Shown here: positions 6,194 to 50,296 of the stretch, piece after piece
Numbering within the stretch: position 1 is the stretch's first letter
Layout of the letters: each line of letters begins with the position of its first letter
Origin: Sedimentisphaerales bacterium
Lineage (GTDB): Bacteria; Planctomycetota; Phycisphaerae; Sedimentisphaerales; Anaerobacaceae
NCBI GenBank assembly: GCA_963708075.1
Contig: OY970194.1
Span: forward strand, 4,608,001 to 4,672,000
Reading direction: 5' to 3'
DNA length: 64,000 bases
Notes under the pieces: generated by a model
Database searches by the model: none
Told to the model about the DNA's origin: nothing
What the model saw: the letters and a program-made list of their open reading frames with translations, nothing else
Program-made: the position numbers and the translations under genes

Positions 6194-6388
6194 TTGCGAC
6201 CGACTCCCCTCTGGGATACACTGCCGGCACCGTGGCGGAGGATAGGGCGCTGCTGGGAAGCAACCCGAGCGCCGCTGCGGCCCAGGGACATGGGCGACGG
6301 GGAAGCTATACTACGTCGCCTTATCCCCTTTATCCTGCCTCTGGCCCAATGCGATAAATCCCAGCGGTCAGGGGACAGCGTCCCCTGA
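6194..6388 (+). ncRNA. Candidate structured RNA element, copy A (inside IS30 3' region)
   Basis: TTGCGA-N17-TACACT, stem CCGTGGCGG/CCGCTGCGG around GGATAGGGC..CCCGAGC core, terminal hairpin TCAGGGGAC/GTCCCCTGA; homologous to copies at 40862 and 50035. Confidence 0.55.
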
Positions 6389-6452
6389 AGTACACAAATG
6401 AATAGGCGACCGGATGACTCGCTATCGTCGAGTCCGTGTTGCACTTCGCATG

Positions 6453-6929
6453 TTAATGCGCCTGTGGAATACTTACGTTGCTTTGGCTATATGGAGTACC
6501 ATCAGAGTACATGGTCATCAAAGTGAAACCATGCTGACTTAATGAGCCTCGGAGAATGAAACCGCGCGTGGAGATTTTGTTCTCCGTGTGTTTGGTCGGA
6601 TGTGCCACAGACATGCTTCGGATCGCACAGATATGCGGGAGCTTCGGTGAGTTGCGAGCTTTGATCCCCAACACCCGGCATATGCAAGCAACAACGTCTT
6701 GTTGTGTTTGAAGTAGCTGGAACGCACCATAGACCTGAAGGTAGCAAAGGCCGGCGTCTTCGATATGAGACTGGTTCAGGTAAGAATCGAATGCAAGCTC
6801 CGTGTCGCCCACTATGTCGAGAGCACTGCAGAGCGTGTTCCAGTCAGCAGAGCGCCTGATCAGCTCATGTTTCTTGCGACCACGATTGATCCGGTCCCGG
6901 ATCTTGCTCTCAAGCCCAGCAATGTTCAT
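6453..6929 (-). pseudogene. Hypothetical protein (possible HEPN-like), 3'-truncated by IS30
   Basis: ORF overlaps the antitoxin stop and runs into the IS30 right TIR, where its stop codon lies; IRSMSVAHPTK resembles an Rx4-6H motif. Confidence 0.55.
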
Positions 6930-7183
6930 CGGCGTGCCGTCTTCTTTCTGCGTCCGGCGGAACGCTTTGTCAGACGTTGCGTCGAGCGTGACAATTCAAG
7001 GAGCGATCTCAACGCCTCGTTCACGGCCGCCGAATCGCCAAACGCCTTGGCTACATCGGGCTCAAGAACCACGACATTGGCCCCCTCCCGCAACAGTCGC
7101 CTGCAATACTTCCCACGGACGGCCTTAGAATAGTCAAGGTCGTATTCGGGGCGCAGCTCATTATGATTATCATCCGATTTCAT
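6926..7183 (-). CDS. BrnA-like antitoxin
   Basis: [39 protein letters not shown]; overlaps the toxin stop. Confidence 0.8.
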
Positions 7184-48377: not shown

Positions 48378-48447
48378 AGCTTATCCGATCTCTGCCCACT
48401 TCTCCCTCTCTGGCTGCATGCGGCTGCCTCTGGTTTTTGGGGGTGCT

Positions 48448-50034
48448 GAGGCTGTGAGAGAATTCGAATTACTGTGATGGTTCGACTGCATCTCTGCGAC
48501 CTGATCGGTCCTTGTTCATTCTGTAGATCTCAGTCTATTCAGGTTCGTTCAGGGGTCGATCTGTCTTGTCCAAACCTCCATCAGTTCAGCAGCCGGCCCG
48601 ATCGGGCCCTGGGGCGGTACTCTATGCCCCTTTTGGACTCTCAGCCCACCAATAATGCCTCACCAAAATGTATCATGTTGTACGCCAGCGCAGACCACAG
48701 CGCAACACAACGCACCTTGTGCAGCCCACGGACCAGCAATCGAGCCAACCCGCGATAGGTCCGCAGATCGGCGTTGACCGTCTCACTGGTCGCCGCCCGT
48801 TCCTTATAGATGCTCTTGCCTTCTTCACTGGCCATGCGCGTCCGCCAGGCGGCGATCTCAGGGCTGTCCGTCTTACGCACCTGACAGGGGTCCACACACC
48901 CTCGACCGCCCTGCGGCGGAGCGTAGATGCGTACACCCGCCTGCTCGGCCGCCTGGATCTGCTCCAACTTGACAAAGCCTCCATCCATCAAGTGCTCCTT
49001 CACCTGGCCGTCCGTACGCTCCTCGACGTGCTCACGCATCGGCGCACTCTCGGCCTTGTCCGTGCCCGCGTTGGTCACGTCCACGCCCAGGATCGCCCGC
49101 GATTGCGTGTCGCTGGCAAACTGCAGGTTATAGGCTGGACGAAAGCCGCCATCAGGCATTTTCATCACACGGGCTTCACTGTCGGTCGTCGAGGCACGCG
49201 GCGGGCTGGGTTTGTCCCGCTGATTGTTCCGCGCTTGGGCTTTGACCTTCTTGATCTCCTCCAAGGCCCCCAGCGCCTTTTCCACTCGCTCCAGCCGCTC
49301 TCGAGCCGCTCGTTCTTTCGCCGCCACCTGCCGCGCATGGCGATCCGTAAGGGCGGGCGACTCCCGCTGGGCCTTCAGAGCTTCCACCTGGCCCTTGGCC
49401 TGGTCGAGCAACTCGTTCAATCGCCGCTCCCGTCGAAAACTGCCTTTGCCGGCGCTGGCCCGCACACGCATCCCATCCTGGCTGATCCGATGCACGCTGA
49501 CCAGCTTACGCTCCATCAGCATCGCCAGCACCTCGGTCATCAGACCGTCCAACGCCTCTTCATGACTGACGCGAAAATCACTCAACGTGTGATAGTTCAC
49601 GCCAACCCCGCCGCACAGCCAGCGATACGCCGCATGATGCTCGCACAGCCGCTCCAACTCCCGCGTGCTGCCCACCCCCTGGGTCGCCGCATACAACCAC
49701 AATGCCACCAGCAAGCGAACGTCCGTCGCCGACCGCCCGGCCTGTCCCTCACTGACCTTCAGTCCCTCGGTAAACTTCGACAGGTCCAGCCGCTCCACCA
49801 CGGCCCAAAGCACCCGCACGTGATGGCCCGGCGGGATCGTCTCTTCCAGGGACAACGGAACCATCCGCGTTTGTGACCGGTCCGGCCGACGAAACCGCAA
49901 CGGACCCGCAGGCACACAGTCTCTCGAATCTTGTTCCATCTCACTAACCTGAGATTCCATTCCCGGCAGAGTTCCTTGCTCTTTCATGCCCGTTATTCTA
50001 CCATCCCCGTCAAGACCGATTTCTTCACAGCCTC
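48448..50034 (-). mobile_element. IS1182-like insertion sequence
   Basis: TIRs GAGGCTGTGAGAGAATTC (from 48448) and GATTTCTTCACAGCCTC (50018-50034); GCT duplicated at 48445-47 and 50035-37. Confidence 0.85.
48641..49987 (-). CDS. IS1182-family DDE transposase
   Basis: LLVALWLYA..RELERLC..YRWLCGG..NYHTLSDFR, QDGMRVRASA, STTDSEARVMK, YKERAATSE. Confidence 0.9.
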   Translation of the reverse strand: MKEQGTLPGMESQVSEMEQDSRDCVPAGPLRFRRPDRSQTRMVPLSLEETIPPGHHVRVLWAVVERLDLSKFTEGLKVSEGQAGRSATDVRLLVALWLYAATQGVGSTRELERLCEHHAAYRWLCGGVGVNYHTLSDFRVSHEEALDGLMTEVLAMLMERKLVSVHRISQDGMRVRASAGKGSFRRERRLNELLDQAKGQVEALKAQRESPALTDRHARQVAAKERAARERLERVEKALGALEEIKKVKAQARNNQRDKPSPPRASTTDSEARVMKMPDGGFRPAYNLQFASDTQSRAILGVDVTNAGTDKAESAPMREHVEERTDGQVKEHLMDGGFVKLEQIQAAEQAGVRIYAPPQGGRGCVDPCQVRKTDSPEIAAWRTRMASEEGKSIYKERAATSETVNADLRTYRGLARLLVRGLHKVRCVALWSALAYNMIHFGEALLVG

Positions 50035-50296
50035 GCTGCCCCCAAACCCCCGGCATTTGCCGCTTCGGGCCAATAGCATGAGAAGCAGGCGTGGGTTGCC
50101 CCTTGCCGTGAATAGCCATTGCAGGTACTCTGGAGGCGCTGCTGGGGAGGACAGGGCTCTGCTGGCAAGCACCCCGAGCGCCCCAGCAGTCCAGTGGCAT
50201 GGGCGATGCCGTCGTCGTGGAGGCATCGTGTGGTTCTTGAGCCATGCTGCTGGCGTAAGGCGCAAAATGCCAGGGGTCCGGGGACGGAGTCCCCGG
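50035..50296 (+). ncRNA. Candidate structured RNA element, copy C (5' hairpin split by IS1182; remainder at 48432-48447)
   Basis: IR arms CCCCGGCATTTGCCGCTTCGGGCCAATAGCATG / CATGCTGCTGGCGTAAGGCGCAAAATGCCAGGGG; TTGCCG-N17-TACTCT; core GGACAGGGC..CCCGAGC. Confidence 0.55.

Follow-up and report, generated by a model that had tools for sequence, protein, structure and literature searches.

A promoter-led structured module in the ends of circle-forming insertion sequences and beside rolling-circle rep genes: a candidate second-strand priming cassette

Known single-strand origins and the module

The closest described counterparts of the element reported here are the single-strand origins (ssos) ssoA, ssoU, ssoT, ssoW, as well as ssoL, and the sso1 of ICEBs1, portable cassettes of about 200 nt folded into a long imperfect hairpin and carried by small Rep_1 elements on the rep (leading) strand, upstream of their nick motif (PMC5703833, PMC4595007). 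As described, an sso has a fixed orientation on the leading strand at a flexible position (PMC5703833, PMC4595007) and works on that strand only (PMC5703833). Our subject is a module of about 200 bp that is present in three copies (A, B, and C) in a 64,000-nt stretch of the genome of a Sedimentisphaerales bacterium (contig OY970194.1, positions 4,608,001 to 4,672,000; hereafter the window). It resembles the ssos in these structural respects but differs from them in that its core is invariant and RNA-like and its -35/-10 promoter can be read from double-stranded DNA; it contains no exact CS-6 in the plasmid pRGF00088, and, whereas the ssos as described are mostly host-restricted, it occurs mainly in the ends of insertion sequences (ISs) and in about ten phyla. 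With confidence that is about evenly balanced, we propose that the module primes the second strand as a portable cassette, an sso of a new kind that is predicted also to make a small RNA. It may work like an sso, yet CS-6 is missing from the module strand of pRGF00088, and a promoter formed only in single-stranded DNA is not the general rule.

Three other described systems are similar in part. Ssr9/MITEPpu9 of the Pseudomonas putida element ISPpu9 is a small RNA gene 3' of a transposase that also exists as a lone unit resembling a miniature inverted-repeat transposable element (MITE); as described, it is found in few strains with one IS110 and is complementary to its antisense RNA (PMC12288879), whereas the module spans eight IS families and plasmids. 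The bridge RNAs and seekRNAs of IS110 and IS1111 are likewise structured non-coding RNAs with internal loops in an IS end, but the loops of the module are invariant and not programmable, and it is accompanied by enzymes of the unrelated DDE, DEDD, tyrosine, and HUH types. In loci L067, L260, and L267, all IS110, the module lies in the left end and a separate conserved non-coding stretch lies 3' of the gene. The idea of a guide-like RNA, raised in an earlier note on this DNA, is not supported, given invariant loops and at least ten unrelated enzyme families as partners. Finally, stand-alone copies resemble repetitive extragenic palindromes (REP/REPIN with RAYT transposases) in being inverted arm pairs with a variable interior and without target duplication, whereas no REP counterpart was found for the core and promoter of the module.

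The earlier note could not assign the element to a named RNA family, and a cmscan-type check agreed: with Rfam 15 at the gathering threshold there were no matches in the window and none on the module in 20 loci, and by E-value none in copy A or eight further loci. Likenesses to the pistol ribozyme, the signal recognition particle RNA, L1-stalk T-loops, and CsrA sites were considered and dropped, as Rfam did not support them. Literature searches by sequence strings and topics found no description of the module, although motif catalogues in paper supplements could contain it. The module is therefore real and, as far as searched, undescribed, while its mechanism is inferred.

Copies, fold, and promoter

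All parts of copies A, B, and C were present where the earlier note had placed them. Its count of three copies holds for the window but not for the genome, since a covariance model built from six copies gave 8 matches in the 7.5-Mb genome; nhmmer added one further partial copy. In the module, a -35/-10 promoter precedes a 55-nt hairpin that covaries and has an internal loop with hardly any variation; a branched hairpin, a tail (AAAGCGATAAA), and a triloop hairpin follow in this order. The core GGAYAGGGC...CCCGAGC begins at 6240 (A), 40919 (B), and 50149 (C), and the inverted arms noted earlier were found around B (31 nt, 90%) and C (41 nt, 73%). The features of the three copies and of the two ISs associated with them are as follows.

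5106-6462, + strand: IS30-family element with copy A inside its right end (inverted repeats 5106-5131 and 6437-6462)
6194-6222, + strand: copy A, predicted promoter, -35 TTGCGA (6194-6199), 17 nt, -10 TACACT (6217-6222), directly 3' of the IS30 stop codon
6229-6281, + strand: copy A, conserved core with stem P1, AGGATA/GAGCG internal loop, GGG/CCC helix, and 4-bp helix with tetraloop
6282-6362, + strand: copy A, branched hairpin (P4/P5) and tail AATGCGATAAA
6370-6387, + strand: copy A, terminal triloop hairpin GGGGAC AGC GTCCCC
40862-40892, - strand: copy B, left arm (inverted 3' arm of P4 and tail), overlapping the -35 box
40873-40901, + strand: copy B, predicted promoter TTTAAG (40873-40878), 17 nt, TAAGAT (40896-40901)
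40908-40961, + strand: copy B, conserved core
40962-41055, + strand: copy B, P4/P5 hairpin, right arm with tail (41007-41037), and terminal hairpin
48448-50034, - strand: IS1182-family element, 1587 bp, in the loop of the left terminal hairpin of copy C, with a 3-bp duplication
50040-50080, - strand: copy C, left arm (inverted tail unit)
50103-50131, + strand: copy C, predicted promoter TTGCCG (50103-50108), 17 nt, TACTCT (50126-50131)
50138-50191, + strand: copy C, conserved core
50192-50294, + strand: copy C, P4/P5 hairpin, right arm with tail (50243-50283), and terminal triloop hairpin (50280-50294)

The earlier observation that the stems diverge while their pairing is kept was borne out by a covariation test on the genome copies. 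In the six uninterrupted copies, 91% of the cells were paired and 11 had changed on both sides, a result reached by none of 500 shuffles. In an ungapped alignment of 95 non-redundant matches to the search pattern, the 12 pairs were 95.4% paired with 151 two-sided changes (0/500 shuffles); the number of pairs with a change was not unusual in the same alignment (211 of 500 shuffles). The invariance of the core is partly built in, as the search pattern itself fixes it; P1 pairs lying outside the pattern covaried too, with 31, 8, and 15 two-sided changes. Folding of single sequences was weakly unusual (z values of -0.5, -1.7, and -2.4). One pair was G-C in 71 and G-U in 24 of the 95 sequences, which fixes the folding strand, and the 4x3 internal loop would, we assume, fit a fold similar to a loop-E or S-turn motif. 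Genome copies L002 and L005 have a second small palindrome inserted at one identical spot of the internal loop.

Downstream of the core, the tail was found in 134 of 195 non-redundant copies, 54 of which have a U-tract after hairpin P5. The outer stem P4 reaches past P5 and beat all 20 shuffles in 95 of the 125 testable copies, with a folding energy of -18.6 kcal/mol compared with -9.9 kcal/mol in shuffles. The loop of the terminal hairpin was purine-N-(A/C) in all 55 hairpins found; such triloops are stable in single-stranded DNA. Tetraloops of RNA type were not enriched in P5 (UUCG 5 and GNRA 3 of 40). Judged from the sequence, RNA-level signs (promoter, partial terminator) and signs fitting single-stranded DNA (P4, triloop) share one strand. 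G-rich triloop hairpins without the core were also present in five unrelated plasmids (L344, L345, L346, L348, and L173) from Roseobacteraceae, Streptomyces, Lacticaseibacillus, and Desulfobaculum, and the triloop hairpin alone is therefore no marker of the family.

Promoter-like boxes with the 17-nt spacing reported earlier precede P1 by 6-7 nt in copies A, B, and C. A generic promoter scanner called none of the three sites, all of which fell below its 9-of-12 cut-off; the promoter prediction rests on the conservation of position across relatives and not on the scanner score. A TANNNT box lies 6-7 nt before P1 in 8/8 genome copies and at -27 to -21 in 64 of the 95 non-redundant pattern matches, as compared with a mean of 15 and a maximum of 25 in 200 shuffles, and TTG is found 16-18 nt upstream of the -10 box in 28 of these 64. 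From promoter and fold, the module is predicted to be transcribed into a small RNA. A depth rise over the core at L157, in RNA-library contigs from four runs, proved to come from contigs of other variants and provides no evidence of transcription.

Alternatively, this RNA may act in trans, protecting or helping elements that expose single strands; it might, for instance, decoy a host protein involved in defence, repair, or RNA binding, and the position of the module in the DNA would be irrelevant. The positioned promoter and the near-invariant core would be expected of such an RNA, as would the presence of the module in either orientation and at either IS end and the existence of copies without a tail (the phage copy L215, and L221). 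It leaves unexplained, however, the conserved stem past the terminator-like hairpin, the tail, the strand-specific triloop, and the rep-strand position in 4/4 rolling-circle cases, and we regard it as fairly unlikely.

Host transposons and rolling-circle replicons

The conserved, covarying, promoter-led element turned out to be common to unrelated IS families, as the earlier note had claimed from the window, in a census of neighbours far wider than the window. We surveyed 160 loci with flanks outside the genome, drawn from the matches listed, for an enzyme within 500 nt of the module. Nearest-ORF selections (64 downstream, 56 upstream, and 49 + 48 more open reading frames) were scanned by Pfam, and the names of 26 neighbour proteins were checked by NCBIfam. 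A mobile-element enzyme was found in 114 of the 160 loci: IS3 35, IS110 22, IS21 11, IS256 9, IS481/ISNCY-like 7, IS30 5, ISL3 4, ISLre2 1, transposons with DDE transposase, ATPase, and AAA_25 7, tyrosine recombinase 6, DUF1670 2, and one each of IS630, IS1380, reverse transcriptase, Rep_1, and Rep_2. Locus L285 was counted under tyrosine recombinase, as a small gene of this kind lies nearer to the module than its Rep.

Copy-out families thus account for 94 of the 114 classified loci, as against one IS630 and one IS1380, and for 70 against 2 among 123 non-redundant loci. Circle formation has been listed for IS1, IS3, IS21, IS30, IS256, IS110/IS1111, ISLre2, ISL3, and IS1202 (10.1101/2023.06.07.543989), and eight of these nine families are among the hosts, the sole absentee being IS1. 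The ISNCY matches are tentatively assigned to the IS1202 family from their TGT ends (10.1101/2022.12.17.520857). As a control, 20 module-carrying host genomes were found to hold 348 DDE_Tnp_1 and 313 rve matches, whereas the neighbours of the module comprise 47 of the rve type (integrase core) and one of the DDE_Tnp_1 type (IS4/IS5-type). In the IS630 case, the element ends about 45 nt after its stop codon, which places the module outside; the IS1380 gene is 420 nt away, and the module is probably outside there too.

Copy A is cargo of the IS30 element, as had been noted: it lies between the stop codon of the transposase gene (5210-6190) and the right inverted repeat, a layout repeated in L019, L027, and L107. 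Elements present in several copies also show the module inside their ends, namely IS256 (L058/L081, 1551 bp), IS3 (L050/L060/L070, 1466 bp, and L165/L168/L170), and the IS481/ISNCY-like L098/L102 (1627 bp). For IS110, ISL3, ISLre2, and IS21, the position inside the ends was read from the flanks and not from multiple copies, and some IS110 cases may be insertions beside a module. In the four-gene transposons L272, L236, L271, and L231 (DDE transposase, ATPase, AAA_25 helicase, and a small upstream gene), the module follows the helicase gene. The IS30 element itself occurs once in the genome. Its right-end sequence (window 6395-6462) recurs at G000:C1 5285921, 6888742, and 4344887, in each case without transposase or module and adjoining RAYT-type palindromes followed by a gene.

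The module could also be a cis-regulator that restrains the transposase by means of an attenuator and an antisense promoter directed inward. It is convergent with the transposase in 9/9 IS256 and 11/11 istB-type IS21 loci and in part of the IS3 loci, its alternative P4/P5 pairing is switch-like, and the U-tract after P5 would suit an attenuator. Convergent copies usually end short of the stop codon. However, copies on the same strand after the stop codon (IS30, many IS3, and ISLre2) and divergent copies at the left end (ISL3 and some IS110) cannot be antisense to the mRNA, and neither the restriction to circle-formers nor the plasmid copies would be explained, which makes this reading very unlikely. 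The portable promoter suggested earlier fares no better as the purpose of the module: inside ISs, it mostly faces the transposase stop codon or the IS end, and in 21 relatives the module is absent at the fumarase gene that follows copy C.

The module also lies upstream of four rolling-circle Rep genes and on the same strand as these: those of pRGF00088, L285, and L221 (Rep_1) and of L240 (Rep_OBD), the last three being among 80 metagenome loci. pRGF00088 (HG796808.1, L172), found by a PLSDB search, is a circular plasmid of 2376 bp with a full module, and the order on one strand is core (1391-1445), tail (1628), CTTGATA (1734), and rep. Its Rep_1 open reading frame (3-929) is unannotated, and the annotated coding sequence over the module (1359-1862) is probably spurious. 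CTTGATA, described as the nick site of Rep_1, with TAGCGA/T as CS-6 (PMC10378824), also lies between module and rep in L285; in both replicons, the module is thus on the nicked (leading) strand, where an sso would be found. No nick motif was found in L221 and L240, though the module is on the rep strand there, and no CS-6 is present on the module strand of pRGF00088. The AAGCG/ATGCG of the module tail is a near match to CS-6 at most.

No viral relatives were found for the Reps of L240 and L221. On the opposite strand of L240 (2299 nt), small open reading frames resemble, by eye, a filamentous-phage coat protein and a single-strand-binding protein. An apical hairpin, identical over 20 nt within a changed stem, lies near the relaxase regions of two Bacteroidota plasmids, a weak match (E values of 2e-4 and 1e-3).

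We also considered a compact origin similar to that of ColE1, at which an R-loop of the transcript would prime double-stranded IS circles that multiply before integration. The order of promoter, structured RNA, A-rich tail, and G-rich run, a layout that we take to be like that of ColE1, speaks for it, and no element-coded protein would be needed, in keeping with unrelated hosts. On the other hand, both pRGF00088 and L285 come with a Rep and a nick motif of their own, genomes tolerate as many as 18 chromosomal copies, and no Rep-less module plasmid turned up in the PLSDB searches. We consider this the least probable of the readings.

Proposed function

The hosts have in common a stage in which one strand is displaced or closed into a circle. 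According to our preferred reading, second-strand priming, copy-out transposition or rolling-circle replication would release one strand as a circle, on which the branched hairpin, the A-rich tail, and the triloop hairpin would fold and attract the priming machinery of the host. The promoter would yield an RNA of about 60-110 nt from the double-stranded copy, and its invariant core may bind a host factor assisting the second-strand step. Such a stage has been described in part: figure-eight replication can give a double- or a single-stranded circle (PMC9345347), and for IS110 the rejoined strand can resolve to either, the double-stranded form being about 20-fold better at one junction (10.1101/2025.10.25.684509, section 7). 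Conversion of the circle is left to host replication (PMC7780238, PMC9333248). In favour of second-strand priming are the bias towards copy-out families and its control, the location inside IS ends, the rep-strand placement in four rolling-circle elements, the folding strand fixed by the G-U pairs, the uniform loop of the terminal hairpin, and, weakly, the apical hairpin near the two relaxase regions.

Several observations weigh against second-strand priming. The -35/-10 pair resembles an ordinary double-stranded promoter, and pairing between upstream and downstream sequences is not general: complementarity had a median of 23 compared with 22.7 in shuffles, and the left arm is present in only 32/195 copies. 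A pre-opened single-strand promoter as the general rule was rejected on these two grounds. Being identical in sense to the displaced strand, the RNA cannot prime it by simple annealing; with this, and with a promoter confined to single-stranded DNA not being the general rule, the weak point of the reading is what the RNA would do. L221 has neither tail nor nick motif, L240 has the tail on the opposite strand and the core within the rep leader, and in L285 a TAGCGT about 170 nt before the nick motif may mark a conventional sso. In what the source on IS30 states about the circle, it is copied out by replication from the flank 3'-OH, and no sso is mentioned there. The module is found in both orientations, with 19 bottom and 16 top cases in IS3 and, likewise, 17 and 5 in IS110. 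As for the census, 46/160 loci have no classified enzyme nearby (16 of them are short), and the local classifier was limited to families first seen by Pfam among the neighbours. For the six tyrosine-recombinase hosts, formation of single-stranded circles is not known. Kinship within families means that the counts overstate independence; kinship notwithstanding, the module entered at least eight IS families.

A bolder version, which we consider clearly improbable, is an RNA-directed second-strand origin: to complete copy-out replication, eight transposase families and rolling-circle plasmids would all have borrowed a single RNA device. Here, the transcript would carry the purine-rich 5' arm of P4, the partner of which lies beyond the terminator-like hairpin. 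As this complement is conserved beyond the terminator, the RNA would have a way to pair with the displaced strand: it could anneal to the same-sense single-stranded circle and open P4/P5, and the annealed RNA might provide a ready primer or tether a host priming protein that is bound to its core.

Copy-out-paste-in is a major transposition route, and in the accounts drawn on here the step from figure-eight to double-stranded circle is left to unnamed host replication. The presence of one cassette in eight of the nine families listed as circle-forming and in rolling-circle replicons points to a single-stranded stage, on which the cassette offers a deletable handle. If it is indeed a broad-host-range second-strand origin, it could be of help in constructing vectors for Planctomycetota, Acidobacteriota, and anaerobes. 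Whatever the mechanism, Rfam has no entry for this structured motif, which is highly conserved and occurs in about ten phyla.

Stand-alone copies, spread, and neighbouring genes

In the genus of the window, the cassette has turned into a mobile unit that stands alone between two tail units in inverted orientation. Inverted pairs of the tail unit, 47-1952 nt apart, number 16 in this genome; 4 enclose a core and 12 do not. Copy C is absent at the fumarase site in 21 relatives, and the stand-alone units therefore move; one loose pattern match at this site of the relatives was, by eye, another repeat. The gap before the fumarase gene (L349-L370) has differing repeat types in many relatives and is an insertion hot spot. 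The longest pair (G000:C1 1212251-1214203, 1952 nt) encloses a gene of about 450 aa that by eye is not transposase-like, a possible case of cargo capture by a stand-alone unit.

These findings could mean that the module is a selfish passenger of IS ends, non-autonomous and of no function to the ISs themselves. The recent insertion of copy C and the inverted arm pairs, most of them core-less and one around a 2-kb cargo gene, would suit such an element, and Ssr9/MITEPpu9 with an IS110 offers a precedent (PMC12288879). Copies B and C have the terminal inverted repeats of a MITE, but no consistent target-site duplication was found around the 16 arm pairs. Moreover, core and promoter have been conserved from phylum to phylum, whereas the flanks and the stems have diverged, with compensatory changes, and the abundant IS4/IS5-type elements are avoided. 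We therefore strongly doubt this explanation.

The claim that IS1182 targets the module was confirmed, as the 1587-bp element sits in the left terminal hairpin of copy C. Each of the four IS1182 copies of the genome interrupts a GC-rich hairpin in its loop and is accompanied by a 3-bp duplication; two of the four are in module ends. IS1182 thus uses the hairpin as a target and is not the carrier of the module.

The covariance model matched 36 of 61 related genomes (own genome counted) and 23/23 in the genus, with 1-18 matches each; a second model, with 37 candidates scored per genome, matched 10 of 151 genomes across the phylum. A 31-nt pattern gave at least 120 loci in species genomes, at least 119 in metagenomes, and 15 in IMG/VR. 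According to the record titles of the 80 genome loci listed, the module occurs in about ten bacterial phyla: Planctomycetota (including Sedimentisphaerales), Acidobacteriota, Desulfobacterota, Bacillota, Chloroflexota, Verrucomicrobiota, Armatimonadota, Cloacimonadota, Sumerlaeota, and a few Pseudomonadota bins. DNA searches of PLSDB gave one true copy and two divergent ones. There was no module match in E. coli genomes, and nothing beyond short chance-level matches in a phage collection. Judged from their open reading frame layout and partial Pfam scans, small module-bearing IMG/VR contigs are mostly IS3-bearing fragments and not single-stranded phages. L215, a 49-kb phage-like contig from IMG/VR, has a stand-alone core without tail near a RecT gene.

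The gene after copy B (41077-42000, 307 aa), called HEPN in the earlier note, has an RSKLVH (HEPN-like) motif, while the protein gave no Pfam, NCBIfam, or PADLOC match. Two Y1 (IS200-like/RAYT) tyrosine transposases are encoded in the window, at 4359-5066 and 51519-52085. The former, directly before the IS30 element and thus beside copy A, was considered as a carrier of the module and rejected; it has its own, different short palindromes at its flanks.

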